Notes: generated from the sequence alone by a model not told the origin. Numbered from the stretch's first letter, positions 11,498-35,214 are shown. The stretch: DNA of 53,126 nucleotides from Candidatus Saccharimonadota bacterium (GCA_020428025.1 JAGQNO010000001.1:1-53126); one strand, 5' to 3'. Numbers and translations are program-made.

Positions 11498-13200
11498 TGG
11501 GCGGTTTTGGTGGGCTTAGCTACGGTTACGGTTATTTTTTTGAGGTCCTTAGGTGCTTTGCTGACCCAGAACGGGCTCAGCTTAATATCTACGCCAGTCA
11601 CGTCTGGGTTAGAGGCCAATACTGCCTTGATATCACCAGCTTTTTTGCCAGCAAATTGCTTGGTCAAGTCGGCTACGTCTAGGCTTGGACCCACTTCTGC
11701 TACCGTTTGCAAATTCAGAGAAAGACCGTTTTCTGCCGGGCCCATTAGCTTGAAGGCACCCTGGGTAATACCCTCTGTTAAAATGTTTTGCTTGGTAGTG
11801 TCTATCTGCGCTTTTATGGCATTGCCTACCAGTGTCTTGAGGTCCGATTCCTTGGCGCCGTAGACGGTGTAGGTAATGGCTTCTGTGACGGTGACACTGC
11901 TGGCCTGATCACCCGCATTATTGCTGGTGGTAATGGTTGGCTGACCAACGGTGTAAGTGGCGTCAATGACGTACATGCCCTGGCCTTTCAGCTGGTCCGA
12001 CAGTGCTTTCTGAATGTCTGGCGCGCTGGTGTTGATCTTGGCCTTGGCGGCATCGATATCGGCCTGCGAAACGACTGTTTGGATGTTATCGGTGCCGCCA
12101 CTGGCAGAGCCGGAGGCCGTTATTGTGCTCCCATCATAAGTGTCGTTCTTACCTGATACAGTGAATTTAGTGCCGCCAGAAGCGTTGTACTTAGCTCCGG
12201 CAGCTTGTGCAGTTATGTCAGCTGAACCCGAGAGAACACAGTTCTTGCCCATGCCCGTTGCATCTTTCAAAGTAACGCTCTGCTGAATGATATAGGTCTG
12301 GCCACCACTACTAACTCCTATACCACTTGGTACGATTTGCACACCATTAGAACATGAGCTGCTGAGGGTAATTGCGCCCGTAGCAGTGGTGCCGTTGTTT
12401 TTCTGCCCAGTAGCCGGAGCACTGCCCGTAAATGTTTTTTGCTGCTCCGCCTTCTTGGCTGGGACAGTTTTGCTATCCTCATTCAGCGCGGTTGCCGTTG
12501 TGTTTAGCGCAAAACTTACATTGGTGTTAACATTACTGGCATTTGTCTTAATGTTGATTTTGGCCCGCGGCATAACCACAAAAGCTACATACCAACCAAC
12601 TACCAGTACAATCAGTAGCAGTACGCCCAAAATTGACAGCAAACGGAACTTATCAAAGTCTGGCACCTTAAGTTTTTTGTTGGGCTTGGGCGATTTTACA
12701 GCTGCGGCGGGCAGCGGCTCTTCTTCTGGCGCTTCTTCTTGGTTGTCTAGTTGCAAAGTTTCAATGCCCTCTGCTTTGGGCGGCGGCGTAGCGTTTGGAC
12801 TGGCTAGGTCGCCCACAGGGGCATTCGCGTCTAGCTCTGGCTCTTGGTCTGAATCCGAGCTGAGTTCTGCGTTTTCATCTACAACTTCATCGTCTACCGG
12901 GCCAACTTTGGGAGCAGCCGGAATCTGAGGCCGACTGGTAGGTGTGGCCGCAACATGCAGACCAACCGCGCCAGCTAGGGGCATCAGGCCGGATTCTGTG
13001 GTTACCAAAACTAAGTTTTTCTTTTCTTGGTCTGCCGCGCGCTTGAGCAGCTTCATGTTAACAATACTTTGCAGCGTGGTGGCGCGCTTTGGCAGCACAA
13101 AGGCTACCACTTTAGCGGAACTGCCGCGTAGCTTATCTATAATAGCGGTGATTTCATCGTCGATGTCTATATAAATGGTGTCTTTGCTGGGTGCGCTCAT
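11494..13200 (-). CDS. Hypothetical bitopic membrane protein (568 aa), translationally coupled to ftsA
   Basis: ATGA overlap with the ftsA stop. About 85-aa cytoplasmic domain, acidic Pro/Glu linker, one TM (LLSILGVLLLIVLVVGWYVAFVV), about 350-aa Thr/Ser/Gly-rich external domain. No family recognised. Confidence 0.6.
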   Translation of the reverse strand: MSAPSKDTIYIDIDDEITAIIDKLRGSSAKVVAFVLPKRATTLQSIVNMKLLKRAADQEKKNLVLVTTESGLMPLAGAVGLHVAATPTSRPQIPAAPKVGPVDDEVVDENAELSSDSDQEPELDANAPVGDLASPNATPPPKAEGIETLQLDNQEEAPEEEPLPAAAVKSPKPNKKLKVPDFDKFRLLSILGVLLLIVLVVGWYVAFVVMPRAKINIKTNASNVNTNVSFALNTTATALNEDSKTVPAKKAEQQKTFTGSAPATGQKNNGTTATGAITLSSSCSNGVQIVPSGIGVSSGGQTYIIQQSVTLKDATGMGKNCVLSGSADITAQAAGAKYNASGGTKFTVSGKNDTYDGSTITASGSASGGTDNIQTVVSQADIDAAKAKINTSAPDIQKALSDQLKGQGMYVIDATYTVGQPTITTSNNAGDQASSVTVTEAITYTVYGAKESDLKTLVGNAIKAQIDTTKQNILTEGITQGAFKLMGPAENGLSLNLQTVAEVGPSLDVADLTKQFAGKKAGDIKAVLASNPDVTGVDIKLSPFWVSKAPKDLKKITVTVAKPTKTAQ

Positions 13201-14537
13201 ATGCTTAACATCCGATCCAATTTTTCTCTAATGCTGCCGCCTTGGCTGCCATCTAATTGTAGCGTATCTAGACCTACGCGCAGAAGCCCCATGGCCGTAA
13301 TGAAGGTGTGGTCGTTAACTTTACCGGTGACGTCTTTAATGCCCACCACCTGCTCCGGCCTAATGTGGTGCACGCTGGGCTTGCGCGTAAACGGAAGGCT
13401 CTTGTACCAGCTGGCTTCTTCTAGTCGACTCATGAGCATGTCCAGGCTGGAGCCGCCGCCACACAAGAAAAGTCGATGCGGCAAGTGGTCTAATTTATCA
13501 AACTCCGCCAAGGCCAGCTCTATGCCGCTAATCCAGACATCGGCCGTTTTTTCTAGCGCTTTTTCTATGTCTGGGCGCTTTTGGGTAGGCACCCGGCTAG
13601 ACGACAGGCCCACTTTAAGCGCTTCCGCTTGATCAAAATCCACGCCCAAATCGCGCTCTACGGCGCGGGTAAAGGCTCGGCCGCCAATGCCAAACATTTT
13701 GGTGCCCTGCACGCCGCCATCATTAACTACGGCAATATCTGTGGTGCCGCCACCAACGTCCATTAAGACGGCGGATAGCGACTGGTTGGGAATGTCGCCA
13801 ATAACGGCTCTAGAAACAGCAAATGGCTCCGCGGCCACAGCAATTAAGTCTAGGTCCAGCTCTGAGGCGGTTTTTTCTAGCGCACCGATGTGAATCATGG
13901 GGGCAAAGGCGGTGTACAGCTGCACCACCACGTCTTTGCCTTGGAAACCAATGGGGTTCGTTACGGGGTAGCCATCGATTTCTAAGCTAACCAGCGCGCT
14001 GTTAACAAGCCGCACCGGCACTTCTTTGCCGCCCAGCTCCCAGGTAAGCTCTTGCCGAGCCCGGACCTCTGCACGGTCTTGCACCAGCCTAATAATCTTT
14101 TCCATCTCTTGAATATCTAGCTGCTTAGCACTATCTTTGCGGCTCACGCGCACAGTTGTGGTAGTGCCTTTAACCAGCTCCCCGGCAATGCCAATAATTG
14201 CCTGGCGCACACTGACACCCGCCTCTTGCTCTGCCTTGTTTAGAGCTTTGTCGCAGTTTTCTACCACACCAGCAATGTCGGCAATTGCACCGGCCTGCAT
14301 ATCTGTTAACGCCTGGTGTTGGCGTCCCATGCCCACAATTTCTATGCCGCCATCTGGCTGCACTTTGCCAATCAGCGCTTTAACGTATTCTGTGCCGATA
14401 TCCAGCGCTACAATGTGCTGATCCGATTTTGCACCCTTGACCGGCATATTACTGCGCGCCTGCTGGGCCTTTTCTTTAGCAACCGCCAAAGCTTTCTGAG
14501 CGGCCACAGTGGAAACGTCTTTGAGTTTAGCAAGCAT
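13197..14537 (-). CDS. ftsA: Cell-division actin-like ATPase FtsA
   Basis: ALDIGTEYVKAL phosphate-1, MDVGGGTTDIAV phosphate-2, FLCGGGS adenosine motif, SHS2/1C-like insert. The N-terminal 30-40 aa may be an over-extension. Confidence 0.8.
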   Translation of the reverse strand: MLAKLKDVSTVAAQKALAVAKEKAQQARSNMPVKGAKSDQHIVALDIGTEYVKALIGKVQPDGGIEIVGMGRQHQALTDMQAGAIADIAGVVENCDKALNKAEQEAGVSVRQAIIGIAGELVKGTTTTVRVSRKDSAKQLDIQEMEKIIRLVQDRAEVRARQELTWELGGKEVPVRLVNSALVSLEIDGYPVTNPIGFQGKDVVVQLYTAFAPMIHIGALEKTASELDLDLIAVAAEPFAVSRAVIGDIPNQSLSAVLMDVGGGTTDIAVVNDGGVQGTKMFGIGGRAFTRAVERDLGVDFDQAEALKVGLSSSRVPTQKRPDIEKALEKTADVWISGIELALAEFDKLDHLPHRLFLCGGGSSLDMLMSRLEEASWYKSLPFTRKPSVHHIRPEQVVGIKDVTGKVNDHTFITAMGLLRVGLDTLQLDGSQGGSIREKLDRMLSI

Positions 14538-14558: not shown

Positions 14559-15629
14559 TTATCGCCTTGCGCGGCGATGTTTTACGACTTTTACAGTTTG
14601 TAGAGCCACTTGCTGCATAGCGTAGCGCTCACCCAGCCAGAACATACTGACGCCCAAGATAATCGTGGCGTAGGCCGGAGCAGCGTAGCGCCAAAATTCG
14701 CCGGAAGGCAGTGGTATGTTGGGCCAGTTGCTGCCGGGGCTGTTTGCTATGCCAGTGGTAGTAGCCACGCCGGTGGGTACAATCATAACCGTTATCTGCA
14801 AGCTAGTGGTCTGACCAGCAGCATCGGCAACCGTAATCATAATAGGATAGCCGGTGCGGTGGGTGGCCGGTTTGTTGTACACGTGCTGCAAATGAAAATC
14901 GCCGGGCGTTGCTTGACTCTGCAGATTGCCAGCACCATCGCCCCAGTCCACCTTAATGGCGTAGGGCGGCGTGCCGCCGCTCAGCGTTAATGGCCAATCT
15001 GTCGTTTGACCCACATTGTAGGCTTTAAAACTGAAGGTAAAGCCAATCACTGGCGCGTTTTTATTGCTAGGCTGAGCTGTTATGACAGAAGGTGCAGGCG
15101 GTGTTTGTGCAGTTGCTGTTGAAGGCGCGGGGGGTGTATTTGTGGAAGGCTCAGGTGGTGTATATGGTGGCTTGTAGATAACTGTGGTGGGCGTGCCAGC
15201 GGGGCCGGCATCATCTGTTAGATTATACGCTTGGGCGCTCAGAACATTCTGCCCATATCTAAGGGTGAGCGATATTTGCCACCTACCATCTGGCTGACAC
15301 TGTGCGGTGCCGACGGTGTGACCATTATTGGTGAGTGTCACATAGGATTTATCCGGGCAAGTACCGCTGGCATCAATTTTTGGCGACTCAAACGTAGCGC
15401 CGCCCAGCGGCGAATCTATGGTAGCGGCACTGGTCAACATGGGCGCCGGAATCCGACCCTTAACCTGATAATCGACCCCATTTACGCCGCCCGTAAAGCT
15501 CCAGCAAAACATAAGCGTGGCAAACACCAGCAAGCCCAAGAGTGGATAGCTGGTGTGCGCATGCGGCCGCAGCTTAAAGCTGTGACTGCGATGGATTACA
15601 AGCGGTTTTTTGGTTTTTGTTTTGGGCAC
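14559..15629 (-). CDS. Membrane-anchored surface protein with Ig-like and PKD-like domains (paralog of 21072-21965)
   Basis: N-terminal signal anchor, Pro/Thr linker, PKD-like LTLSGGTPPYAIKVDWGDGAG, C-terminal TM with FWLGERY and a basic tail. Confidence 0.6.
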   Translation of the reverse strand: MPKTKTKKPLVIHRSHSFKLRPHAHTSYPLLGLLVFATLMFCWSFTGGVNGVDYQVKGRIPAPMLTSAATIDSPLGGATFESPKIDASGTCPDKSYVTLTNNGHTVGTAQCQPDGRWQISLTLRYGQNVLSAQAYNLTDDAGPAGTPTTVIYKPPYTPPEPSTNTPPAPSTATAQTPPAPSVITAQPSNKNAPVIGFTFSFKAYNVGQTTDWPLTLSGGTPPYAIKVDWGDGAGNLQSQATPGDFHLQHVYNKPATHRTGYPIMITVADAAGQTTSLQITVMIVPTGVATTTGIANSPGSNWPNIPLPSGEFWRYAAPAYATIILGVSMFWLGERYAMQQVALQTVKVVKHRRARR

Positions 15630-19938: not shown

Positions 19939-20967
19939 CTAGCAAACAATGCCGCCGCCCAGCACGACATCACCATCATATAGAACCGCTGATTGTCCAG
20001 GCGTAATGGCGCGGACTTCATCATCCAAAATAAGCGTACTGACCCCATCAAATGTGCAGGCCACCAGCGGTGCGCGGTACCTGGTGCGGACAAGGTACTG
20101 GCCCTTCTCTGGCCGCCCGTTAATCCAATGTAGTGCGCCTAAATCTAATTTTTTGCGCCATAGTGCCGGGTCCGCTAAATCTGTAGTTACGTACACTTCA
20201 TTGCGCGCCATGTCTTTGCCGGTGACATAGTACGGCAAGCCGCCGCCCACGCCCAGACCGCTACGCTGGCCAATGGTATAAAAGAGCGCGCCATCGTGTT
20301 GGCCAATAACTTTGCCGCGCTGGTCCAGCAAATTCCCCGGTTTTTGCGGCCCCAGCTCCGCCAACAAGAAATCCTTTATGCCCACTTTGCCCACAAAACA
20401 GATGCCCTGGCTGTCTTTTTTATCTGCCGTGGCCAGACCCATTTTGGCTGCCTGCGCGCGCACTTCCGGCTTGGACAGTTCTCCAATGGGCATTAAGGAT
20501 TTTTGCAGCGCATCCTCTGTAACTCTGTACAAAAAATACGACTGGTCTTTATTAACGTCCAGCCCCGCTTTAAGCTGACCATTTTGGATACGAGCATAGT
20601 GACCAGTGGCAATCATATCCGCTCCATCTCCCAGCGCTGTCTCTAAAAAGAGCTTAAATTTGACCTCTTGGTTACACATAATGTCCGGGTTGGGCGTAAT
20701 GCCGGCCTGGTAGCCCTGGACCATGTAATCCACCACTTTTTGCCTATATTCTTTTTCAAAATCGTACATTTTGAACGGAATATCCAGCTGCACCGCCACC
20801 CGCTTGGCATCCTGGTAGTCCTGCTTCCACGGACAAGCAAAACCGGGCAAATCCTTGGACCAGTTCTTCATGTACACGCCCGTGACATCATAGCCCTGCT
20901 GCTTCAGCAGCGCAGCGGTGACGGAGCTATCTACCCCGCCGGACATCCCAACATAGACTTTTTGCAT
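19939..20967 (-). CDS. mnmA: tRNA-specific 2-thiouridylase
   Basis: PP-loop VGMSGGVDSSV, catalytic Cys motifs (DIMCN, SQGICF), 342 aa. Confidence 0.95.
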   Translation of the reverse strand: MQKVYVGMSGGVDSSVTAALLKQQGYDVTGVYMKNWSKDLPGFACPWKQDYQDAKRVAVQLDIPFKMYDFEKEYRQKVVDYMVQGYQAGITPNPDIMCNQEVKFKLFLETALGDGADMIATGHYARIQNGQLKAGLDVNKDQSYFLYRVTEDALQKSLMPIGELSKPEVRAQAAKMGLATADKKDSQGICFVGKVGIKDFLLAELGPQKPGNLLDQRGKVIGQHDGALFYTIGQRSGLGVGGGLPYYVTGKDMARNEVYVTTDLADPALWRKKLDLGALHWINGRPEKGQYLVRTRYRAPLVACTFDGVSTLILDDEVRAITPGQSAVLYDGDVVLGGGIVC

Positions 20968-21027
20968 TTACATATTATATCAGGGGCTTTCAGTGTTCTG
21001 GCTTAGCATATAGACTATAGTCGATAT

Positions 21028-21045
21028 TATAGATTATAATCTATA
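21028..21045. promoter_or_regulatory. Perfect 18-bp palindrome TATAGATTATAATCTATA (candidate operator/promoter) upstream of mnmA
   Basis: Self-complementary over all 18 nt and contains TATAAT on both strands. A second 10-bp palindrome GACTATAGTC lies at 21013-21022. Confidence 0.4.
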
Positions 21046-21071
21046 TGCATAGAAGTGCGCGCGCCGCGGGG

Positions 21072-21965
21072 TTATTGCCGTTCAGCACTCTCAAGCTCAC
21101 GCCGCAAAACATACAACTGATGCCGCCGCCCCAACCAAAACGATGTAAACAGCAGCGGAAGCACCAACAAAATCGGCCACCATAAAACAATCACCTTGGT
21201 TATAACTGATGAGGTGTTTTTGCCAGAAGCCGCCCCGCCCTGGCTGGCGCCATTGGCTACCGCTACCAGCTGCAAAAAGGCCGTCGTGCCATTTTTGTCG
21301 GTGACGCGCACGGTTACTTTATAAATACCAGCGGCGTTATATGTATGATCAATAGAAAAGTCGCCGGCAAAGTTCAAGCTCTTAAGCTGGGGGGCAGAAC
21401 CGTCGCCCCAGTCTACGCTGACCGCATACGGGCCCACGCCGCCGCTTAAAATCAGCGGCCAAGACAACGAGGTGCCAGGATTGACGCCGCGGCGGGCGTA
21501 TAAAGAAGTTAGAGACACCACCGTGCCAAACTGGGCAAATTGGGCATCTTTGTACGTTACATTTACGGTGTTAGAGTCTGGGCCGGCTTGGTCCAAGGCG
21601 TCGTAGACACGAGCTACCAGCGCGTTAGCGCCGGCAAACAACGTGGCCTGCAGGGTATAGCTGCCGCCCTTACAGGTGGTGGAGCCAATAAACACGTTGT
21701 TAGAGAAAATCTTAACCAGTGTGCCATTTGGACACAAACCGGCAATGGTAATCGGCATGGTACTAACGGTGGAGCCGTTGCCGGGCGTAGTAATGGTGGC
21801 CGCAGTTTTGGGCGGGTCCGTGCTAATGGTGCCTTCCAGGCCAATCTGGCCGGACTGCGGGTTCTGCGAGGTATCCGTGGCGGCCAGCACCGGAGCAACG
21901 CTACCAAAACTTAGCAGCAGCCCCAGAAGACTAGCGGCGGCGGCTTTGCGAACGCGCCACCACAC
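21072..21965 (-). CDS. Membrane-anchored surface protein with Ig-like and PKD-like domains (last gene of surface locus)
   Basis: GTG start at 21965 gives signal peptide MWWRVRKAAAASLLGLLLSFGSVAPVLAA. Ig-like ITIAGLCPNGTLVKIF..TTCKGGSYTL. PKD-like LILSGGVGPYAVSVDWGDGSAP. C-terminal TM with FWLGRRH. Confidence 0.6.
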   Translation of the reverse strand: MWWRVRKAAAASLLGLLLSFGSVAPVLAATDTSQNPQSGQIGLEGTISTDPPKTAATITTPGNGSTVSTMPITIAGLCPNGTLVKIFSNNVFIGSTTCKGGSYTLQATLFAGANALVARVYDALDQAGPDSNTVNVTYKDAQFAQFGTVVSLTSLYARRGVNPGTSLSWPLILSGGVGPYAVSVDWGDGSAPQLKSLNFAGDFSIDHTYNAAGIYKVTVRVTDKNGTTAFLQLVAVANGASQGGAASGKNTSSVITKVIVLWWPILLVLPLLFTSFWLGRRHQLYVLRRELESAERQ

Positions 21966-22983
21966 GGCGGTTGTAAGCCTTGATTGCTCGCGGCAGCCCA
22001 AAGATGGCGGCCAGCAGCAGCACAATTAACAGTACAAACAGTACAATTGCCCAGAACGGAATAATGTAGAAGTTGGTACTAGCCGTGATTAGCGACCCGT
22101 TGGAGCCGTAGCCAAAGTTGCCAACAAGTTTGTAGGCACCAATTTTGCCCAGCTTGGTGGTGAACGGAATATCAAACTTACGAATACTACCTGGCAGCAC
22201 GTTACCGCGCGGGGTTTCATTGTTGACTTCGTAGTTGGCAATGATTTTACCGCGCCAGGTCTGCAGCTGGATTTTGCCAAAGGGCTGCTCTTGGATATCC
22301 CCGGCGTTTTGGAAGCGGACGGTAGCCTTGAGCTTGTCAGGACTGCTAAAAATGGTGCGGGGAGCATCGATTTGGTTGGGGCCAACAATTTTGCGGACAT
22401 CTAGGCTTGCCACGCTGAGCGCTTCGCGGATGTCGCCCGGCACAGTGACTAGGATAAGCGACCCAACACTAGCAGATAGCGTTACGTTCTTAGAGGCCGC
22501 ATTGTCTGAGCTAGCAGGCACAAAACGCACGGCGCCGTAGTAGCCACCGGCTTTGTAGTCTTTGGGTACGGTAACAGGCACGTTAATGTTGGCCGTCTGG
22601 CCCGGAGACAATGTTACGTTAGGAATATCGCCCACCAAGCGCTTTAGGCTGTGGCTTTGGGCAAATTGGTTGGAGTCTAGAATGATTTGCGGCTGACCGG
22701 TTTCATCGGTGGCGGCGGTAAAGTCGTTAATAACTACTTTGTAGCTAGCCACCTGGGAGGTAACGTTTTCTACCGTAACTGGCACAATTTGGGTACTGCC
22801 GGCATTAACCGTAATATCTGAGCGCACCGGCGATATTTTAAGCCCGCTAGAACTGGCAGATCCGTTGGCCGCAATAGGTTTAGTGGCTTGCGTGGCGGGT
22901 GCAGCGGCAGCGATGCCTCCACTTAGAAGAATACTGCCAGCTACCACCAGGCTGAACAGATTCATGAGCCTTACACGCAACAT
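21931..22983 (-). CDS. DUF916/DUF3324-type (CscA-like) cell-surface protein with C-terminal TM anchor
   Basis: Signal peptide MLRVRLMNLFSLVVAGSILLSGGIAAAA. Two Ig-like halves with KAGGYYGAVRF and LPGSIRKFDIPF..IGAYKLVGNF patterns typical of these families. C-terminal TM and basic tail. Confidence 0.55.
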   Translation of the reverse strand: MLRVRLMNLFSLVVAGSILLSGGIAAAAPATQATKPIAANGSASSSGLKISPVRSDITVNAGSTQIVPVTVENVTSQVASYKVVINDFTAATDETGQPQIILDSNQFAQSHSLKRLVGDIPNVTLSPGQTANINVPVTVPKDYKAGGYYGAVRFVPASSDNAASKNVTLSASVGSLILVTVPGDIREALSVASLDVRKIVGPNQIDAPRTIFSSPDKLKATVRFQNAGDIQEQPFGKIQLQTWRGKIIANYEVNNETPRGNVLPGSIRKFDIPFTTKLGKIGAYKLVGNFGYGSNGSLITASTNFYIIPFWAIVLFVLLIVLLLAAIFGLPRAIKAYNRRVVARSQSRRR

Positions 22984-23175
22984 ATTTTTTGGATCCTTTT
23001 TTACTCTTTGCTCATATAGTAACAAAGTGGTTACGCTTTTGGCAAATGCCCTTTTGGCGCTTTTACCAGAATGGCCGATTTCTAAAAGCCCACGCGGCGG
23101 CCACGCTATGGGCCTTCTATGCTACCAAACCTAAGCTTCTGGAAATCGCCGTCGCCGGGAGATCCCGTAAACAAA

Positions 23176-24213
23176 CTAAAACGTCCCCAGAGCCACATAG
23201 CTCATGGTAGACACGTACACGCCCGGTGCCTGGCCAGCCGGCACATTAACCACGTAGGTCACGGTGTACTTGCGGGCCTCGTCTGGCTGGGTGGTTACGG
23301 CAATGGCGTCGCCAGGATTAAAGGCAAATTTGTTAATCTGATTGTAGCTGGCAGTGGGCAGACCAAAGCCGGTGCCGGAGACATCTTGCCCACCCTGCGG
23401 GGCGCTGTTGGCACGTAAGTTTATACCAAATTGGCCAGTTCCGGTCTGCACTGGGCTGGCGCCAGTTAGGGCTGGGATGACATTATTACCAGAGGTCATA
23501 GTAGTGCCGCCCACATAGATAGAATAACCGCTAATAGCGTTGCTGGCGGCCAAGATTTGGCTGGTGCCCTGGCTGGTTATGCGGCTAGAAAGTTCGCCAA
23601 AGTTGACGTAATCGCCCTGCACATTGTTGCAATCATAGCCAGTTATAGTCACCCCAACGCACATTAAAAGGTACGGCGGGACGGTAGCCTTAATGCTAAT
23701 ATCCATGTTAATTGCGTACGCAATGCCGCCGGTGTAGCTGGGCACGCCGCTCAGGTTGCCGTCTTGGTAGGTAAGCACGCGCACATAGTAGGAACCCTCT
23801 GCGTCTGGGTTGCGTACGCCGTCAAACTCATAGGTGCTAAGCAGCTGGCTGGCAGCCAGTGGCGGCCGCATAATGACGATTTGGTTGGTGGTGGTCTGCG
23901 GGCTCATGACAAAGCCCATTTCTCCAGACTGACTCAGCAGTACAGCTTGGCTAACATCTAGGCCGGCGGGGGGCGTACAGGGCGACTCCGGGAATGGGTC
24001 GTTGGCACATATTTGAAATACAATGGTCTGCACCGTGTCCATGCCGGGCATTTGCAAGCTAAATTTGTAGCGACTCGTGCCCGCCGCCAAAGCGTTAGAC
24101 AACATCAGCGATCGATTTTGCAGCTGCGTGCCCTGCGCCCACAAACTCTGCGCAAACACTAGCAGCGCACAGAGCGCTAGGAGCAGACCGGCGGCAAACT
24201 GCGTCCGCTTCAT
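23176..24213 (-). CDS. Secreted surface protein, GTF-tail family (member D, 345 aa)
   Basis: Start at MKRTQFAAGLLLALCALLVFAQSLWA (signal peptide). Shares GTGQFGINLRAN, GDAIA and the C-terminus APGVYVSTMSYVALGTF with neighbours. Confidence 0.7.
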   Translation of the reverse strand: MKRTQFAAGLLLALCALLVFAQSLWAQGTQLQNRSLMLSNALAAGTSRYKFSLQMPGMDTVQTIVFQICANDPFPESPCTPPAGLDVSQAVLLSQSGEMGFVMSPQTTTNQIVIMRPPLAASQLLSTYEFDGVRNPDAEGSYYVRVLTYQDGNLSGVPSYTGGIAYAINMDISIKATVPPYLLMCVGVTITGYDCNNVQGDYVNFGELSSRITSQGTSQILAASNAISGYSIYVGGTTMTSGNNVIPALTGASPVQTGTGQFGINLRANSAPQGGQDVSGTGFGLPTASYNQINKFAFNPGDAIAVTTQPDEARKYTVTYVVNVPAGQAPGVYVSTMSYVALGTF

Positions 24214-24223
24214 GGGGTGGCCC

Positions 24224-25513
24224 TTAGAACGTACCGGTTGCAATCATGGCTAGGTTGGCGGTGTAGATACCGGCCGGGGTGGTGCTAGCTGCGGTAGCGG
24301 CAAAGTCGTACTTGTTAATCAGCAAGTTTACTGGGGAGGTAGAGTAGGCAACGCGGTCACCGTACAGTGTCTTAACGTTATCGACACTGGTGGTATCCAT
24401 GGCGTAATGGCTGAGAGTGCCATCGTTATAGTTGGTGTCGCATGTTATGGCACCGACGCTTAAGACTAGGTCTGCGTTGGTGCTGTCGTTGCAGTGCATA
24501 CCAAAGGCAGCTGTTCCAGCCGTGATTGCACCAGGGGTTGCTGCACCGGCATTAGCTGCTGGGATAGCACAGGTTACGCCAGCATCGATGCTTAAGCCAC
24601 CACAAGCATTACTGTTTTGCATTCTTATGGCCACGCCGTTCAAGGCGTTAGTAGAGGTGATTGTAAAGACAGACCCGGTGTCTACCGCGGAGGTGTCCAA
24701 GGTGTTGTTAGTGCCGTGTCCTAAGGTGATTGCGGGGACCACTAAGTTACCCGTAGGCGTACAGCTGGTCGGTGATGTAGGCGCTCCAGGAGGTGGCGTG
24801 GTACTGCCGCTGACACAGAAGGTTAGTGTTTCCTGGACCTTAGCCGTTACCTGAATTACGTAGGCGGTACTGAGCGCAAAACCACCGTAATCCTGATACG
24901 AACCTGGCGCAGCGTGCGTGTAAGCAGCTGGAGCGGTGTCCGATGTGTAGGTAATCAAGCGGGCATAAAAGGTACCAAGTTCACTTGTGTTGGTAACACC
25001 ATTAATCGCAAACGAGTAGGCAGTACCGGCCGTAACGCCAACGCCGGTGCTATCTGACATAGTAAAGGTTTGACCGGAGTTTAGTGAGCTGGCTGTCCAG
25101 CCAGCGCCCAAGCTGCTGTAGGCTACAGGGGTTGATGTGGTGTTGTCCGTATACGCACTGGTGTCTATGGTTGGTGTTGCACCAACGGTAAATCCTGCCG
25201 GAGCGGGACAGTTGGCGTCTTCAATAAACGGCGTACCGCCGGTGCCAGAACAAAAGTCAATTACTATGCCCTTTAAGGTGTACGCGGTAGCCGATGTAAA
25301 CGTAACGCGGTAGCTTACGTTGGTACCGCTACCCACACCGGTAGTAATAGCCCCACCGCTCACGCCGCTATCGCTCATTTTTATGGAGCGGAACTGCACC
25401 TGACCACCAGCGCCAGCGGCCAAAACAACGGCCGTTGGCGACATCGCAAACAGCATACCTAGCGTCATTAGGACGCTGAGTGGCCGTTGAATTCGTTGTT
25501 TAAAAGTGTTCAT
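24224..25513 (-). CDS. Secreted surface protein, GTF-tail family (member C, 429 aa)
   Basis: Start at MNTFKQRIQRPLSVLMTLGMLFAMSPTAVVLAA. Close paralog of 25641-26876. C-terminus TPAGIYTANLAMIATGTF. Confidence 0.7.
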   Translation of the reverse strand: MNTFKQRIQRPLSVLMTLGMLFAMSPTAVVLAAGAGGQVQFRSIKMSDSGVSGGAITTGVGSGTNVSYRVTFTSATAYTLKGIVIDFCSGTGGTPFIEDANCPAPAGFTVGATPTIDTSAYTDNTTSTPVAYSSLGAGWTASSLNSGQTFTMSDSTGVGVTAGTAYSFAINGVTNTSELGTFYARLITYTSDTAPAAYTHAAPGSYQDYGGFALSTAYVIQVTAKVQETLTFCVSGSTTPPPGAPTSPTSCTPTGNLVVPAITLGHGTNNTLDTSAVDTGSVFTITSTNALNGVAIRMQNSNACGGLSIDAGVTCAIPAANAGAATPGAITAGTAAFGMHCNDSTNADLVLSVGAITCDTNYNDGTLSHYAMDTTSVDNVKTLYGDRVAYSTSPVNLLINKYDFAATAASTTPAGIYTANLAMIATGTF

Positions 25514-25640
25514 GAGGTTGTGCGGTTGTTTGATTTTTAATTTCCCTTGTGTTGATAGTATCACGCTTGTCAATGTAAGCGCAAGCATTTCCCTCCTGGG
25601 GCGCCCTCTTTGGTGTTTTTGGATGTGTAATTGTTTCATT

Positions 25641-26876
25641 TTAGAATGTCCCCGTAGCAATTAATGCTAAGTTAGCGCTGTACAAACCGGCCGGCGTCGA
25701 GTTGCTGGCTGTGGCGCCAAACGTAAGTGTGTTATTAACATTACTAACAGGTCCAGTGCTAGAAGCAATGTTGTCGCCAAAGGTGGTCGTAACATTGCTG
25801 CCGCTGGTGGTACTATCCATAGCAAAATGAGCCACATTGCCATCGTAATAGTTTCCATCTGGCGTTATAGTTCCAGTGCCACTAGTGCCAAGACTAATAT
25901 TCATGCCAAAAGCCGCCGTGCCAGCGGTCATCGCAAAAGGTGTGGCACCACCGGCATTTACCGGCGGAATATCACAAGTTGTGCCGCCATCAACACTTAA
26001 GCCACCGCAGGCGTTACTGTTGTGCATTCTAATGACTACCCCGCTTAGGGCGTTGGTAGAGACCTGCGTGTAGGCTAATCCGGTGTCTACATTTGAGGAA
26101 TCGATAATTTTTGCCGTACCGCCGGCAGTGTGTCCCAACGTTATAGCTGGTGTGGTTACGCCGCCGCAGTTAGCAGCAGGAGCGGCGCCAGATACGCAGA
26201 AGATTAAACTTTCCTGAACGCGCGCCGTAATGGTAATGACCATGGCGGTACTCAGCGCAACACCGCCAAAGTCCTGCTCGCCGCCAGTGGCTGCCGTTTG
26301 GTTGTGGGCTTGGGCCTGGGCGGCTGATGTATAGGTATAAATACGTGCGTAGAATGTGCCTACGGTGCTGGGGTTAGTAAACCCGTTGGATGTGCCGTTG
26401 CCCATTTCTATTATGAGCGGCGATGTTAAAGAAGATGCTGAGGCGCGCGTTAGAACAATCCGGTTTGCCACCGGACCAGTGGTGTAAACCCCAAAGTTGC
26501 CCCCGGCGCCCACACCGCTCTGAGTGCCAAGTGTGGTGGTGGCGCTGTTGGCGTTAAAGCCGGTGGGCGTGGTACACGTATCGAAGTACAGTGGGCTGTT
26601 AGCACAAAAATCTACGACTATACCACCCACAGCGCCGTTGTTGCCCACGCTAAATTTGAGCTTGTACGCCACGTTGGTGCCGCTGCCAACCCCTGTTGTA
26701 ATCGTGCCGCCGGAGGGGCCGGAATCGCTCATAGTAATGCTGCGGCCGTTGAGCTGCGCTGCCCAGACGGTGGCCGGCATAGCGGTAGAAATCAGCAAAG
26801 ACAAAACCATCACCACCGCTGGAAGCGATGGCGTGCCATCAAATATACGCTGAATGTGGCCGATGTATTTTTTCAT
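25641..26876 (-). CDS. Secreted surface protein, GTF-tail family (member B, 411 aa)
   Basis: Signal anchor LPAVVMVLSLLISTAMPATVWA. RSITMSDSGPSGGTITTGVGSGTNV block shared with member C. C-terminus TPAGLYSANLALIATGTF. Confidence 0.7.
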   Translation of the reverse strand: MKKYIGHIQRIFDGTPSLPAVVMVLSLLISTAMPATVWAAQLNGRSITMSDSGPSGGTITTGVGSGTNVAYKLKFSVGNNGAVGGIVVDFCANSPLYFDTCTTPTGFNANSATTTLGTQSGVGAGGNFGVYTTGPVANRIVLTRASASSLTSPLIIEMGNGTSNGFTNPSTVGTFYARIYTYTSAAQAQAHNQTAATGGEQDFGGVALSTAMVITITARVQESLIFCVSGAAPAANCGGVTTPAITLGHTAGGTAKIIDSSNVDTGLAYTQVSTNALSGVVIRMHNSNACGGLSVDGGTTCDIPPVNAGGATPFAMTAGTAAFGMNISLGTSGTGTITPDGNYYDGNVAHFAMDSTTSGSNVTTTFGDNIASSTGPVSNVNNTLTFGATASNSTPAGLYSANLALIATGTF

Positions 26877-26975
26877 TTTTTGGTTTTGGGCATTGTAGCA
26901 GCTATAATCTGCTGTTATTTTAGCTTCACCTTAGCTTAGCGTAGCACTAGCGGAATAAACATGCAAGGGGTGTGT

Positions 26976-27737
26976 TTAAAAAGTCGATGTAGCCACCAGC
27001 ACGTGCTGCAGCGTGTACTGCCCGCCCGGCGTGGCGTTGGAAACATTAAACAAGTATGAAATGGTGTAATCTGTCTCGCCGCTACTCTTGTTGCTGTAGG
27101 CAATGGTATCGCCGGTAACGTACTTAAAATAGTTGGGCGTATCGTAGCCAGCGGCGGCCTGACCAAAACTAAAACTGGCATCCGGCGCCTGGGAAGGATT
27201 TGCGCCAAACGTCACCGGCGCGGTGTTGGCCACCAAGTTAATGCCAAACTGCTCCGTGCCCACGCTAGAAATTGCGGGGGTAGTTAGACCCAACATAATG
27301 TAGCTGCTATTGGTTGGCCCCGGCGATGTCTGCACCACTGTATATCCGTTAGACAGGTATGTTTTTACCGTAAAAGTTGCCGTGGCCGTCTTGGCTGCCG
27401 TAGATGTAAGCGTGCCTAAGTTGGTACCGGGATTGGTTACTGTAAATTGCAGCCAAGGCTGTCGGTCTGTGTTAAAACCAGCGTTAGATTGGTAGCTGGT
27501 GCTGGTAGTGTTGCCCACCGCCGTCTCTCCTGCTGCCTGCTTAGAGCAGTACGTGCTGGAACAAGCGCGCAGGTTGCCGCCGCTGCCAAAGAAAATTTCG
27601 TTTACTCGGTAATTGCTAGACGATGCCTGCGGCACAGTATTTGCCAACACAATAGCCGGCGCCAAGACCAGCAGAGCACCAACCAGAATTACAGCCAGAG
27701 CGATTTGTTTGCGCAGCATACATCTATAGTATGCCAT
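26976..27737 (-). CDS. Secreted surface protein, GTF-tail family (member A, short form; start may be ATG 27719)
   Basis: Signal peptide MLRKQIALAVILVGALLVLAPAIVLA. GTEQFGINLVAN, GDTIAY and C-terminus TPGGQYTLQHVLVATSTF. Confidence 0.7.
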   Translation of the reverse strand: MAYYRCMLRKQIALAVILVGALLVLAPAIVLANTVPQASSSNYRVNEIFFGSGGNLRACSSTYCSKQAAGETAVGNTTSTSYQSNAGFNTDRQPWLQFTVTNPGTNLGTLTSTAAKTATATFTVKTYLSNGYTVVQTSPGPTNSSYIMLGLTTPAISSVGTEQFGINLVANTAPVTFGANPSQAPDASFSFGQAAAGYDTPNYFKYVTGDTIAYSNKSSGETDYTISYLFNVSNATPGGQYTLQHVLVATSTF

Positions 27738-27787
27738 AAGCGGAATATGCTAGACTACAAGCAGCACGTAATACATGCAAGAACAGG

Positions 27788-28804
27788 GTGGAAGACAAAA
27801 AAAACGCCGATGCCGAACCCGCCGAAGAGTCGCTGGAGCAAGCCGCGACTATTGTTGACGCGCCTGAAACAGACAAGAATGATGGCGACCCCGATGTCAT
27901 TGCCGCCGACAAAAACGTAAAACGCACCGTTGGCAGCCCGCTTAAACCATCGGTAGCCAAGCAGACCCAAAGTTGGCTGTTAAGTCTTAATATTTGGCTG
28001 CTTTTATTTGTCTTTGTGCTAGTAGTGGCGGGCGTGATTGCCTTCTTTAGCTACAGCTACAGCAAGAAAAAATCCGGGAGTGGCGGCACCATTAACACCA
28101 CCACCCTGACTCCGGAAGTCCTCAGCCAGCTCACCAAAAACGATGCCACCGTGGGCTCCAGCGGCCAAGTCCTGTACGTACAAAGTAGCGCCGTTTTTAC
28201 CGGCAAAATCCTAGCCCGATCCGACCTAGAAGTGGCCGGCAACCTGGTTTTGGGTGGACTTCTGAACGTACCCAGCATTAACGTAGCTGGCAATGCTGGC
28301 GTGGGCCAGCTGAACGTCAGCCGCAACATGGCTGTCACCGGTGACACCGCCATTCAGGGCCAAGTCACCATATCTAAAACCCTCCAGGTTGGCGGCAGCG
28401 GCACCTTTACCGGCCCCCTTTCTGCCCCGCAAATCACCGTTGGCTCTTTACAGTTGGGTGGCGATTTAGTCATTAGCCATCATATAACAGCCGGCGGTGG
28501 CACGCCCGGCCGATCCGTTGGCACAGCCCTAGGCAGCGGCGGCACCGCCAGTGTCAGTGGCACGGACACCGCCGGATCAGTCAGTATTAACACCGGCGGC
28601 GGCCCGCCGGCTGGCTGCTTCATAACTGTCAATTTTGTGACTAAATTTAACAGCACGCCTTACGTGCAAGTAACGCCTGTTGGCTCATCGGCCGGTGGTA
28701 TTGCCTATTACGTCACCAAGACAACGGCCGGCTTCAGCATTTGCACGGCGACGGCACCCCCGGCTAACGCTAACTTTGGGTTTGATTACTTTGTGATTAA
28801 CTAA
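27788..28804 (+). CDS. Bitopic membrane protein with external beta-helix-like repeats and a small C-terminal beta-sandwich (possibly lectin-like) domain
   Basis: GTG start, acidic N-terminus, TM WLLSLNIWLLLFVFVLVVAGVIAFF. Repetitive v.G.l.v.G segments (LEVAGNLVLGG, INVAGNAGVGQ, LQVGGSGTFTG, LQLGGDLVIS). The domain assignments are by eye. Confidence 0.6.
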   Translation: MEDKKNADAEPAEESLEQAATIVDAPETDKNDGDPDVIAADKNVKRTVGSPLKPSVAKQTQSWLLSLNIWLLLFVFVLVVAGVIAFFSYSYSKKKSGSGGTINTTTLTPEVLSQLTKNDATVGSSGQVLYVQSSAVFTGKILARSDLEVAGNLVLGGLLNVPSINVAGNAGVGQLNVSRNMAVTGDTAIQGQVTISKTLQVGGSGTFTGPLSAPQITVGSLQLGGDLVISHHITAGGGTPGRSVGTALGSGGTASVSGTDTAGSVSINTGGGPPAGCFITVNFVTKFNSTPYVQVTPVGSSAGGIAYYVTKTTAGFSICTATAPPANANFGFDYFVIN

Positions 28805-29108
28805 CCTCTACGACTGGTGTTCGCACAACTTTTCTGGAAACATACAGCGTTACAAAAAAGTTTACAACCATAGCCCCAACCCAAAAATATACAGCCGGGC
28901 CTAAAGTAACATTGATAGGTTTACCTTCTATTCCAAAAGGCATTTGGTCTACAAAAAACGGAATAAAAGATAATCCAATCGCCAATCCGGCTAAGATAAG
29001 TGCAGTCTTTTTGTTTCGGATCTTAAAACACTCTAACCAACTCAAGGCCATAGCAATATTTGCCCACCAAGCAATTATACCCGGGTGAATTGGCATCCAA
29101 CAAAACAT
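28797..29108 (-). CDS. Hypothetical membrane protein (103 aa, 3 TM)
   Basis: Hydrophobic ORF convergent with 27788-28804. No family recognised. Confidence 0.4.
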   Translation of the reverse strand: MFCWMPIHPGIIAWWANIAMALSWLECFKIRNKKTALILAGLAIGLSFIPFFVDQMPFGIEGKPINVTLGPAVYFWVGAMVVNFFVTLYVSRKVVRTPVVEVS

Positions 29109-29138
29109 GGCACCAGCCAGGGTACCATTGGAATCAAA

Positions 29139-29158
29139 AACAAGAACTTCAGCTTGTT
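29139..29158 (-). terminator. Weak hairpin + T-tract downstream of the ATPase cluster
   Basis: On the minus strand AACAAG-ctgaagtt-CTTGTT followed by TTTGATT, about 60 nt after the epsilon stop. The AT-rich 6-bp stem makes this low confidence. Confidence 0.3.
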
Positions 29159-29217
29159 ATTTTGGGAGGTTGTTGCTTGGGCAAATTTTTTTATGCTTAA
29201 CACTATTTTCTCCTTCA

Positions 29218-29553
29218 CTAAACGTCTAAAAACACCCGCACAGTATCCTGATGCACGTGCAGTAGACCACCGGCAATCCGGATGCGCTTGTTACCGGACG
29301 GCGCCGCCACATGCATCTCACAAGAAGTTAAGAGCGAGATAAAGTTGTGGTGATGCGGCAACACATCAAACGGGCCGGTGGCGTTTTCTGCGGACAGGCT
29401 AAAGGCCTCTTCATTGTAATACACGTGGAAAGGCGAGTAGACTTTTAAGCTCATGACCGGCTTGCCGTCGACCAATTTTTCCTTGGGGGCTTCTGCGGCT
29501 GGCTGGCCGTCGTCTACAATTTGACCGGTGCTGGCGTCCTGTCTTTTTGCCAT
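29218..29553 (-). CDS. atpC: F1 epsilon-like subunit (beta-sandwich only, N-terminal extension, no C-terminal helical hairpin)
   Basis: MSLKVYSPFHVYYNEEAFSLSAENATGPFDVLPHHHNFISLL matches the epsilon pattern (l.v.tP......v..v.....G.fgiLp.H.p.i..L). Position is immediately after beta. Confidence 0.65.
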   Translation of the reverse strand: MAKRQDASTGQIVDDGQPAAEAPKEKLVDGKPVMSLKVYSPFHVYYNEEAFSLSAENATGPFDVLPHHHNFISLLTSCEMHVAAPSGNKRIRIAGGLLHVHQDTVRVFLDV

Positions 29554-29555
29554 CT

Positions 29556-31716
<2,161 letters not shown>

Positions 31717-31720
<4 letters not shown>

Positions 31721-34344: not shown

Positions 34345-35214
34345 TTATAATTTTAGCACTAAATAGACGGCGACTAAACAGCCGATAAAAATGAGCAGGC
34401 CGGTAATGACTACTTGGATCATGTTGCGCATAATCGATTGCTTGGCCAGCGGGTTTCTACCAATCGCCATCATGCCGCTCTGGATACCACCGTACATCAG
34501 GGCTGCAGTAATGCCAAAGCCAGCAAGCATAATGGCAATGCTGACGTAGAGCTGGCTGGCGTTAATTGGCTTACCAACAACGCTTATGGCTGCTTTTTGC
34601 ACAAACTGCGGCACGCCGCTACTGTTGGTGACCAGTAGCGGGTTTTTGGCCACGCCGATGTCTACCTGGACGCTACCAATTGCAGCTTGGATTTCTGCAC
34701 CTTTACTGGTTTTTAGCTTGGCTACAGAGGCCACATTGTTCTTGCCGTCAAAGGTGCCTACGGCGCGGCCTAGGATTGTAGCCTGACTTGTATCGGCTTT
34801 CATGCCAATTCCGCTGATGGCCGATACGCTTATGGGGTCGCCCGCACCAATACTACCGTTTTGATTACTAACCAAGACGTAATAGCGGCCACTCGTAACC
34901 ACATATACCTGATTACCCGCGGCCGTAGCCGGATCCGTGCTAGAGAGGCTAACCGCCGCACTATTAGGTGCCACCACCACTCCAAATAACTTCTTAGAGT
35001 CTGCATAAGTGGCAAGCGCGACGCTGCCTTGCTTCTTGGTGTCCGGCTGGACAATAAAGCCCGGCCGCAGCGTTTCCGATGCCTTGTATGCCTGAGCCAC
35101 GGACTGCAGACTAGAGGCGTTGGTGTTGGTTTGCTTATCTGCCGCTAAAACCGTTGCCGGCATTAGCAGCAAAACCACCCCTGTTATTACCGACCATGCA
35201 GCGCGGCGTATCAT
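34345..35214 (-). CDS. Signal-peptide protein with about 200-aa external domain fused to a C-terminal c-subunit-like helical hairpin lacking the ion-binding carboxylate
   Basis: Signal peptide MIRRAAWSVITGVVLLLMPATVLA. C-terminal LAGFGITAALMYGGIQSGMMAIGRNPLAKQSIMRNMIQVVITGLLIFIGCLVAVYLVLKL resembles the c-subunit TM1, ARQP-type loop and TM2. No D/E in either helix. Confidence 0.5.
   Translation of the reverse strand: MIRRAAWSVITGVVLLLMPATVLAADKQTNTNASSLQSVAQAYKASETLRPGFIVQPDTKKQGSVALATYADSKKLFGVVVAPNSAAVSLSSTDPATAAGNQVYVVTSGRYYVLVSNQNGSIGAGDPISVSAISGIGMKADTSQATILGRAVGTFDGKNNVASVAKLKTSKGAEIQAAIGSVQVDIGVAKNPLLVTNSSGVPQFVQKAAISVVGKPINASQLYVSIAIMLAGFGITAALMYGGIQSGMMAIGRNPLAKQSIMRNMIQVVITGLLIFIGCLVAVYLVLKL

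Follow-up and report, generated by a model that had tools for sequence, protein, structure and literature searches.

Pam pili are thin surface filaments of ultrasmall parasitic bacteria of the Candidate Phyla Radiation (CPR) and were first described in 2026 (bioRxiv 10.64898/2026.03.03.709456). The present work concerns a stretch of 53,126 nucleotides from a Candidatus Saccharimonadota bacterium (GCA_020428025.1, JAGQNO010000001.1:1-53126), hereafter called the window, in which six genes at positions 21072-27737 very likely form a pam operon, encoding a chaperone-assisted, usher-less pilus for which donor-strand exchange is the mode of assembly on a Saccharibacterium's single membrane. The Pam system has already been described by electron cryo-microscopy (cryo-EM) and captured in NCBIfam models, and the window adds a further Saccharibacterium that carries the operon; only the link between the Pam chaperone and the WxLIP family presented below may be new.

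The reference organism is Candidatus Mycosynbacter amalyticus, from which two filaments were solved by cryo-EM and which employs membrane-anchored chaperones and no usher (10.64898/2026.03.03.709456). Its pilins PamA and PamB consist of two domains each, and the inter-domain linker strand completes the truncated immunoglobulin (Ig)-like C-terminal domain of a neighbouring subunit; conservation of the pilins is highest in this donated linker and at the site that binds it. The two pilins rank second and ninth in protein abundance, and their cysteines are paired. The operon also encodes the single-domain tip pilin PamT, PamE, the RbmA-like protein PamR, and two PapD/FimC-like chaperones with C-terminal transmembrane helices, PamC and PamD. 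According to AlphaFold models in the preprint, the N terminus of PamR inserts into PamE, and the assembly order is likewise based on models. ATP synthase genes as well as one tail fibre-like protein central to the network belong to the pam neighbourhood, and the pili are thought to make the first contact with the host bacterium (10.64898/2026.03.03.709456).

A second system that bears on the locus is the WxL/Csc cluster of Bacillota, which combines a WxLIP (DUF916, DUF3324, and a transmembrane helix) with two or more WxL proteins and often a small LPXTG protein. The published definition asks for one or more WxLIPs and, encoded adjacently, two or more WxL proteins, and a hairpin strand of the WxLIP is predicted to complete the WxL sandwich (Hassan et al. 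2023).

The six genes and their Pam families

The genes of the locus are referred to as A to F, from upstream to downstream:

26976-27737, minus strand: A, PamT, single-domain tip pilin of 253 residues (NF058579 and NF058581 matches)
25641-26876, minus strand: B, major two-domain pilin, paralog 1, 411 residues (NF058581; hhalign to D and PamT)
24224-25513, minus strand: C, major two-domain pilin, paralog 2, 429 residues (47% identical to B)
23176-24213, minus strand: D, two-domain pilin at the PamE position, 345 residues (NF058581; full-length homology to B)
21931-22983, minus strand: E, membrane-anchored two-Ig-domain chaperone at the PamD position, 350 residues (PF06030; fold)
21072-21965, minus strand: F, PamR, RbmA-like (PKD/Ig) protein with a C-terminal transmembrane helix, 297 residues (NF058578)

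An earlier note on this DNA, made from the sequence alone, had described six co-directional open reading frames (ORFs) here, and all six indeed lie on the minus strand between 21072 and 27737. It had also described A-D as signal-peptide proteins with a common C-terminal domain and the last two proteins as membrane-anchored at the C terminus, the last one being of the PKD/Ig type. A hydrophobic, signal-peptide-like segment was found at the N terminus of all six proteins, the common domain of A-D was recovered by BLASTP and hhalign, transmembrane helices were located at residues 298-337 of E and 251-279 of F, and F matched PKD_4 with 31 bits (cutoff 27). This description of the locus is correct, well beyond chance.

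Compared with the closest relative, locus L001 (PamR identity 95%), the ratio of nonsynonymous to synonymous substitution rates (dN/dS) is 0.05-0.09 for all six genes, and this purifying selection indicates that the six ORFs are real genes; positive selection on the pilins is rejected by the same values. A metagenome contig from the European Nucleotide Archive (ENA) encodes an identical E protein, and an independent gene call on it agrees with the window in the lengths of B (411), D (345), E (350), and F (297). The start of the PamR gene overlaps the 3' end of E by 35 nucleotides. Promoter and terminator scans of the locus did not exceed shuffled sequences, and no Shine-Dalgarno-like sequence was found upstream of the starts.

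The proteins were compared with the June 2026 release of NCBIfam, the Pam models of which derive from the preprint (10.64898/2026.03.03.709456). Protein A matched the equivalog model NF058579 (CPR_pilus_PamT) with 302.7 bits (cutoff 240), and F matched the equivalog model NF058578 (CPR_pilus_PamR) with 402.1 bits (cutoff 300). Both A (144.8 bits) and D (149.9 bits) scored above the cutoff of 55 for the pilin C-terminal domain model NF058581 (CPR_Pam_pilin_C). In BLASTP comparisons A and D are 30% identical (E 3e-11), A and B are related with E 4e-6, and B aligns over its full length with both D (27% identity, E 8e-19) and C (47% identity, E 3.5e-93). Profile comparisons with hhalign gave probabilities of 99.9% for PamT versus D, 97.9% for PamT versus B/C, and 100% for D versus B/C. 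C is a tandem duplicate of B. PamT consists of a signal peptide and the Pam pilin C-terminal domain, with neither an N-terminal sandwich nor a linker. The mature pilin-like proteins are rich in Ser, Thr, Gly, Ala, and Asn and contain paired cysteines; B has a mature mass of about 36.7 kDa with three cysteine pairs and C one of 39.7 kDa with four. A search with B found 564 homologues, and all named ones are from Saccharibacteria or Patescibacteria. As an alternative, the earlier note had proposed a new pilus- or adhesin-like assembly; it was right about a pilus and wrong about its novelty, as NCBIfam identifies it as the Pam pilus already solved by cryo-EM.

The conservation of the locus was surveyed by a PamR scan of GTDB species representatives, which returned 80 loci; M. 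amalyticus is not among them. Nearly all named lineages are Saccharimonadia or Saccharibacteria, some loci are labelled "bacterium" only, and one each is labelled Parcubacteria and Pseudomonadota. The full order PamT-(pilin)n-D-E-PamR is found in 36 loci, with one major pilin in 26, two in 9, and four in 1, so the two-pilin state of the window is a common variant. In these 36 complete loci PamT is the first gene of the operon, and the wider order atpG-atpD-atpC, the gene G on the opposite strand, PamT-pilin(n)-D-E-PamR, mnmA, and alaS recurs as well. E adjoins PamR in 65 of the 80 loci, the run D-E-PamR is present in 55 of them, D is always directly upstream of the chaperone, and mnmA follows PamR in 68.

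This conservation bears on the possibility that the six genes encode Ig-fold adhesins or envelope proteins that act independently and do not assemble, their clustering being due to co-regulation alone. All domains are generic beta-sandwiches, E also matches fn3_5 (33.5 bits), and the fold matches of the full-length B model have low template-modelling scores (TM-scores) of about 0.2, all of which would fit such proteins. Yet gene order and stoichiometry are strictly kept across dozens of genomes, the pilins share a C-terminal domain, the linker and C-terminal strands are nearly invariant across relatives, and the matches to components of a structurally solved pilus are at the equivalog level. 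Independent adhesins are therefore very improbable, and a pam operon is strongly preferred.

Several variants of the arrangement were observed in the survey. The distant loci L067-L076 show another order, with G on the opposite strand followed by PamR and the chaperone, the latter in one to three copies. In L013 a second E-like gene lies between the major pilin and D, and in L068 and L076 two or three E-like genes follow PamR, which recalls the two-chaperone operon of M. amalyticus. L090-L092, taken from the ENA and encoding a 100% identical E, carry two extra ORFs, of 53 and 197 residues, between D and E; the corresponding gap in the window measures 192 nucleotides. L090 has an opposite-strand gene of the Tad4 family after PamR in place of mnmA.

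The operon of M. amalyticus has the gene order T-A-E-D-R-B-C, as implied by its QHN accession numbers (QHN43268-43274), and the order in the window is T-(B,C)-D-E-R and then mnmA. Judged by position, PamA would have its counterparts in B and C, PamE in D, and PamD in E, an assignment that is based on gene order, size, and cysteine pairs, given that M. amalyticus is not among the surveyed loci. Both operons have equivalog matches for PamT and PamR, the same pilin C-terminal domain, two-domain pilins with a conserved linker strand and paired cysteines, a membrane-anchored chaperone, the core order T-pilin-E-chaperone-R, and ATP synthase and tail fibre-like genes as neighbours. They differ in that the window encodes one chaperone and M. 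amalyticus two, that the PamB-PamC module after PamR is replaced by mnmA, and that the major pilin of the window is a pair of tandem 37-40 kDa paralogs whereas PamA of M. amalyticus has 55 kDa. The organism is also a different one, an uncultured Saccharibacterium. PamR in turn has, according to the preprint (10.64898/2026.03.03.709456), a tandem beta-sandwich fold like that of RbmA, the tandem-FnIII (fibronectin type III) matrix scaffold of Vibrio cholerae. PamR differs from RbmA by an extra N-terminal strand and by its transmembrane helix at the C terminus, and RbmA binds exopolysaccharide whereas PamR is proposed to be the pilus anchor.

Some points weigh against the assignment of the locus to the Pam pili. 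The scores of B (47.4 bits, E 2e-12) and C (39.6 bits, E 5e-10) with NF058581 are significant but fall under the cutoff of 55. B and C occupy the position of PamA, but their size (37-40 kDa) and the three cysteine pairs of B fit PamB. The PamB-PamC module was not found in the window, nor was any further pilin or chaperone paralog. In addition, the filament of this organism and the chaperone-pilin and pilin-pilin strand insertions are predictions for these sequences.

Chaperone E and the WxLIP family

The earlier note had read the locus as a distant counterpart of the WxL/Csc clusters, with E as a DUF916/DUF3324 protein, and the question is how much of this resemblance is real. E matched PF06030 (DUF916, equal to WxLIP_PGBD) with 28.7 bits, above the Pfam gathering cutoff of 27.3, and the same family was matched by 26 of the 26 aligned relatives of E. 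Many homologues of E are labelled "DUF916 domain-containing protein" at the NCBI. When a profile of 69 E-family sequences was aligned by hhalign with eight WxLIPs from Firmicutes, a probability of 98.9% was obtained (E 1e-17, 272 columns), and in this full-length alignment both domains and the transmembrane helix are collinear. The N-terminal domain alone reached 97.3% (E 2e-11; reversed control 0.5%) and the C-terminal domain alone 33% (reversed control 9.6%). PF11797 (DUF3324) was not matched by E or by any of its 26 relatives. The DUF916 part of the earlier claim thus stands, the DUF3324 part is not confirmed by sequence, and for the latter the support comes from the collinear full-length alignment and from the fold. 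A tblastn search of 7.3 Gb of plasmids with E gave two matches at E<=10, in Levilactobacillus brevis and Enterococcus faecalis, and both are "DUF916 and DUF3324" genes beside WxL genes.

The AlphaFold2 (AF2) model of E has a predicted local distance difference test score (pLDDT) of 79.7 and consists of two beta-sandwiches, a transmembrane helix, and one disordered internal loop (residues 159-172). The best two-domain matches in Foldseek were the Enterococcus faecium WxLIP chains 9i25_C (E 3.5e-10, TMt 0.58), which is described as "bound to long WxL", and 9i1y_A (E 1.8e-9, TMt 0.53). The next matches were the chaperones of chaperone-usher systems CfaA, CsuC, Caf1M, and FimC (E about 1e-6, TMt 0.42-0.54). 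By E-value the top match was the Vpr fibril, with a TMt of 0.20 that comes from one fn3_5-like domain only, a caveat given that E itself matches fn3_5. The fn3_5 family was considered for E and set aside, because fn3_5 proteins fit one domain only (TMt 0.11-0.20) whereas the WxLIPs fit the whole two-domain architecture. The membership of E in the DUF916/WxLIP family is genuine, and the analysis essentially shows that E and the WxLIPs are one family. WxL, DUF916, and DUF3324 are not mentioned in the Pam preprint (10.64898/2026.03.03.709456), and a literature search combining DUF916 with Saccharibacteria found no paper.

For the pilins the outcome was different. PF13731 (WxL) gave no match in A-D at E<=1, with positive controls at 50-93 bits, and no W-x-L motif is present in A-D. 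Profile comparison of A-D with WxL by hhalign gave at most 1.1%, equal to the reversed control, and in the reciprocal direction ten Firmicutes WxL proteins gave no match with the Pam pilin model at E<=10. Homology between the Pam pilins and the WxL domain is accordingly rejected at the sequence level by Pfam, the motif, hhalign with reversed controls, and the reciprocal NCBIfam scan. An LPXTG-like motif, as expected for a CscD-type partner, was not found in any of the six proteins. Among the top 50 fold matches of the full-length B model, which are low-scoring, multi-domain matches, there was no WxL chain. The comparison with WxL/Csc clusters therefore holds for E and fails for A-D. Since at least two WxL proteins are needed by the published definition, the locus is not a WxL cluster. 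Of the two results that the earlier note had expected to speak against a WxL/Csc-like locus, one was obtained, as A-D belong to the characterised Pam pilin family; the other, a lack of resemblance between E and DUF916, was not.

If the locus nevertheless encoded a surface complex of the WxL/Csc type, A-D would be held non-covalently on the cell wall by E, in the way proposed for lactobacilli and enterococci, and would not polymerise into a filament. That E is a real relative of WxLIP, that its only two plasmid matches are WxLIP genes beside WxL genes, and that a WxLIP strand is predicted to fill up the WxL sandwich, by the same principle of interaction as in the proposed Pam chaperone step, can all be cited in favour. 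They are outweighed by the missing WxL domains and LPXTG protein, by the matches of A-D and PamR to models of a family that forms filaments in M. amalyticus, and by the conserved inter-domain linker strand, which is what a polymerising subunit would need. A wall complex in place of a Pam pilus is accordingly improbable.

The two systems still have much in common. E and WxLIP belong to one family with the architecture signal peptide, Ig, Ig, transmembrane helix; both are encoded beside secreted clients, and in both a strand is predicted to complete an incomplete beta-sandwich. They differ in that the Pam clients are unrelated by sequence and profile and come with no WxL domain, W-x-L motif, or LPXTG partner, that E lacks the conserved NQIDKxxxYFDLK insert of the WxLIPs (an 11-residue gap in the alignment) and PF11797 is undetected, and that WxL proteins are described as wall-bound and not as filamentous. 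It is conceivable, if doubtful, that Pam pili and WxL/Csc clusters are two branches of one ancient usher-less, single-membrane system centred on a strand-donating, membrane-anchored chaperone, with clients that are related or handled alike. In that case strand exchange would serve to assemble or cap the WxL proteins and their small LPXTG partner, in the manner of PamT, the pilins, and PamR.

Some further observations were made on the WxL side. WxL and small LPXTG proteins of Firmicutes plasmids (L081-L088) have a common motif after the signal peptide, [ST]-G-x-[VI]-x-F, and examples such as TGKIGFRAN and STAGIRFVEG resemble SGQIGLEGT of PamR (S-G-x-I-G-L), a possible lead towards such a relation. 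The N terminus of NF053819 (EF0750 LPXTG family) is weakly matched by PamR (E 0.035) and by 4 of 10 WxL proteins (E 7.5e-4 to 0.5), and these matches may be driven by the signal peptide. The virulence plasmid pXO1 of Bacillus anthracis (L087, 78207-79968) carries a WxL-WxLIP pair; an ATPase gene of the CpaF/VirB11 family, with a hypothetical gene next to it, lies about 1.5 kb upstream of the pair. Of 296 WxLIP-positive plasmids, 180 are from Bacillus.

Candidate donor strands and proposed assembly

Five segments of the locus are candidates for strands that are donated during assembly:

26196-26273, minus strand: inter-domain linker of B, DFGGVALSTAMVITITARVQESLIFC, candidate donor strand (conservation, and linker donation in the preprint)
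24815-24892, minus strand: linker of C, equivalent candidate donor strand
23659-23730, minus strand: linker of D, equivalent candidate donor strand
22435-22491, minus strand: conserved segment of E, KNVTLSASVGSLILVTVPG, candidate chaperone donor strand (conservation, AF2 loop, WxLIP alignment)
21810-21854, minus strand: N-terminal strand of mature PamR, SGQIGLEGTISTDPP, candidate terminating donor strand (conservation)

In the AF2 model of B (pLDDT 86.8) the N-terminal sandwich domain spans residues 44-210 and the C-terminal domain residues 224-411, and the pLDDT of the monomer is low at the linker (216-219). This linker is the most conserved stretch in 180 pilins of the B/C type (A207 99%, A218 96%, V220 95%, E222 100%, F226 97%) and follows the pattern DFGGVALST..ITITARVQE.L.FC. 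Its conservation agrees with the preprint, in which no region of the pilins is more conserved than the donated linker and the site that it binds (10.64898/2026.03.03.709456).

The candidate strand of E has the pattern NVxLxASVGSL[VI]L, in which every second position is a conserved hydrophobic residue (V167 81%, L169 81%, A171 69%, V173 75%). It begins inside the only internal loop of low confidence in the AF2 model (159-172) and aligns with the region of WxLIP that is reported to insert into WxL. From these features we infer that it may be the strand that is given to the pilins. At the mature N terminus of PamR, 77 sequences have the motif G-S-[VI]-G-[LVI]-[EQ]-G-T-[IV]-x-x-P-P-P, which resembles the linker of D, [LIV]-S-[VI]-x-A-x-V-P-P, and the PamR strand could on this basis terminate assembly by insertion into D. 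When the PDB was searched by sequence with B, D, E, and the profile of the E family, nothing meaningful was obtained; the copy used was one without the PamA and PamB entries 25PZ and 25QA.

From these elements the following assembly can be proposed. A-F would be exported by Sec. The membrane-anchored two-Ig chaperone E would hold each exported pilin by a beta-strand inserted into the open, incomplete Ig-like C-terminal domain. Single-domain PamT would start assembly at the distal tip, and B and C would be added next, each completing the C-terminal domain of the subunit before it with its own conserved inter-domain linker strand. D, the PamE-like pilin, would join after B and C as the proximal or adaptor subunit that receives the PamR strand. 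Insertion of the N-terminal strand of PamR into D would stop growth, and the fibre would be tied to the membrane by the C-terminal helix of PamR. The most likely role of the filament would be the first contact with the host bacterium. The sequence features needed for each of these steps are present and conserved here. Filament structure and donor-strand exchange are taken from experiments on M. amalyticus, and the order of assembly and the role of PamR from AlphaFold models of its proteins; the window and its relatives contribute family membership, domain architecture, linker-strand conservation, synteny, and purifying selection. The choice of the strand donated by E, a division of labour between B and C, and a role in host attachment are put forward as suggestions.

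The principle resembles that of the chaperone-usher pili, in which donor-strand complementation and exchange make up for the incomplete Ig-like fold of the subunits, with a two-domain chaperone and with tip, rod, and terminator subunits in order. This leads to the question whether the locus could encode a classical or archaic chaperone-usher pilus (Pap/Fim, CFA/I, Csu/SCPU). The likeness at the level of the fold would agree with this, as the E model superposes on CfaA, CsuC, Caf1M, and FimC at the TMt values given above, and the best bacterial Foldseek matches of B were the two-domain chaperone-usher adhesins CfaE-CfaB, FimH, PapG, and CupB6, with full-length TM-scores of about 0.2. At the level of sequence no similarity to the Pam proteins is detectable, and none of the six proteins gave a Pfam match to PapD_N/PapD_C, fimbrial, or SCPU families at E<=1. 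Among about 30 ORFs of the window scanned with Pfam or NCBIfam, drawn from those of at least 140 residues, genes for an usher, a sortase, or a type IV pilus were not found. An outer membrane is absent from Saccharibacteria. The Pam chaperone is moreover tethered by a transmembrane helix, the donor strand is an internal inter-domain linker and not an N-terminal extension, and the Pam filament is extended and not coiled. A chaperone-usher pilus is hence extremely unlikely.

Genomic surroundings and significance

Two neighbouring genes of the window are of relevance to the operon:

27788-28804, plus strand: G, membrane protein of 338 residues, divergent from PamT, with an N-terminal transmembrane helix and beta-helix-like repeats
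14559-15629, minus strand: PamR paralog with a C-terminal transmembrane helix, 356 residues, 6 kb away (tblastn 30% identity over 273 residues, E 6e-26)

G has a weak match to Bactofilin (E 1e-3). It is the divergent neighbour of PamT in 38 of the surveyed loci, with ATP synthase genes adjoining it in 36, and it stands beside PamR in 8 distant loci in which the pam genes are otherwise rearranged. G is probably the tail fibre-like protein that the preprint describes in the Pam neighbourhood. The PamR paralog scored 152.9 bits with NF058578, under the cutoff of 300, and could be a second pilus anchor. Its gene is directly beside an ftsA-like gene (13197-14537), an N-terminal segment of the protein, VDYQVKGRIPAP..AATI, aligns with the donor-like strand of PamR, and the paralog recurs 3' of alaS in L004, L006, L038, and L080.

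Elsewhere in the window, positions 34345-35214 (minus strand) encode a protein of 289 residues made up of a signal peptide, a secreted part of about 210 residues (Pfam Phage_cement, 29.9 bits, gathering cutoff 27), and a C-terminal two-helix hairpin, GGIQSGMMAIGRNPLAKQ..., that resembles the c subunit of F-type ATPases. One would expect atpE or atpB at the position of this gene, shortly upstream of atpF/atpH/atpA/atpG/atpD/atpC.

A comparison of positions 19939-31720 with L001 gave a mosaic of synonymous divergence (dS). For atpG and G, dS is 0.10-0.19 at 99-100% amino acid identity, for atpD it is 0.62 at 99.5%, and for the pam genes and mnmA it is 0.8-1.6 at 83-95%, with low dN/dS throughout. 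This mosaic, together with the low dN/dS, points to recombination around the pilus operon and not to positive selection.

The locus marks an uncultured Saccharibacterium as a carrier of Pam pili. Across Saccharimonadia a core of five functions (tip, rod, adaptor, chaperone, and anchor) is conserved, with one to four copies of the rod pilin, and this core provides a simple template for annotating such "hypothetical proteins". Through its DUF916/WxLIP chaperone, a CPR pilus of solved structure is connected with the WxL adhesion clusters, still poorly understood, of enterococci, lactobacilli, Listeria, and the Bacillus cereus group. This also suggests a general route of surface assembly for bacteria without an outer membrane, in which a membrane-tethered chaperone provides strand complementation.

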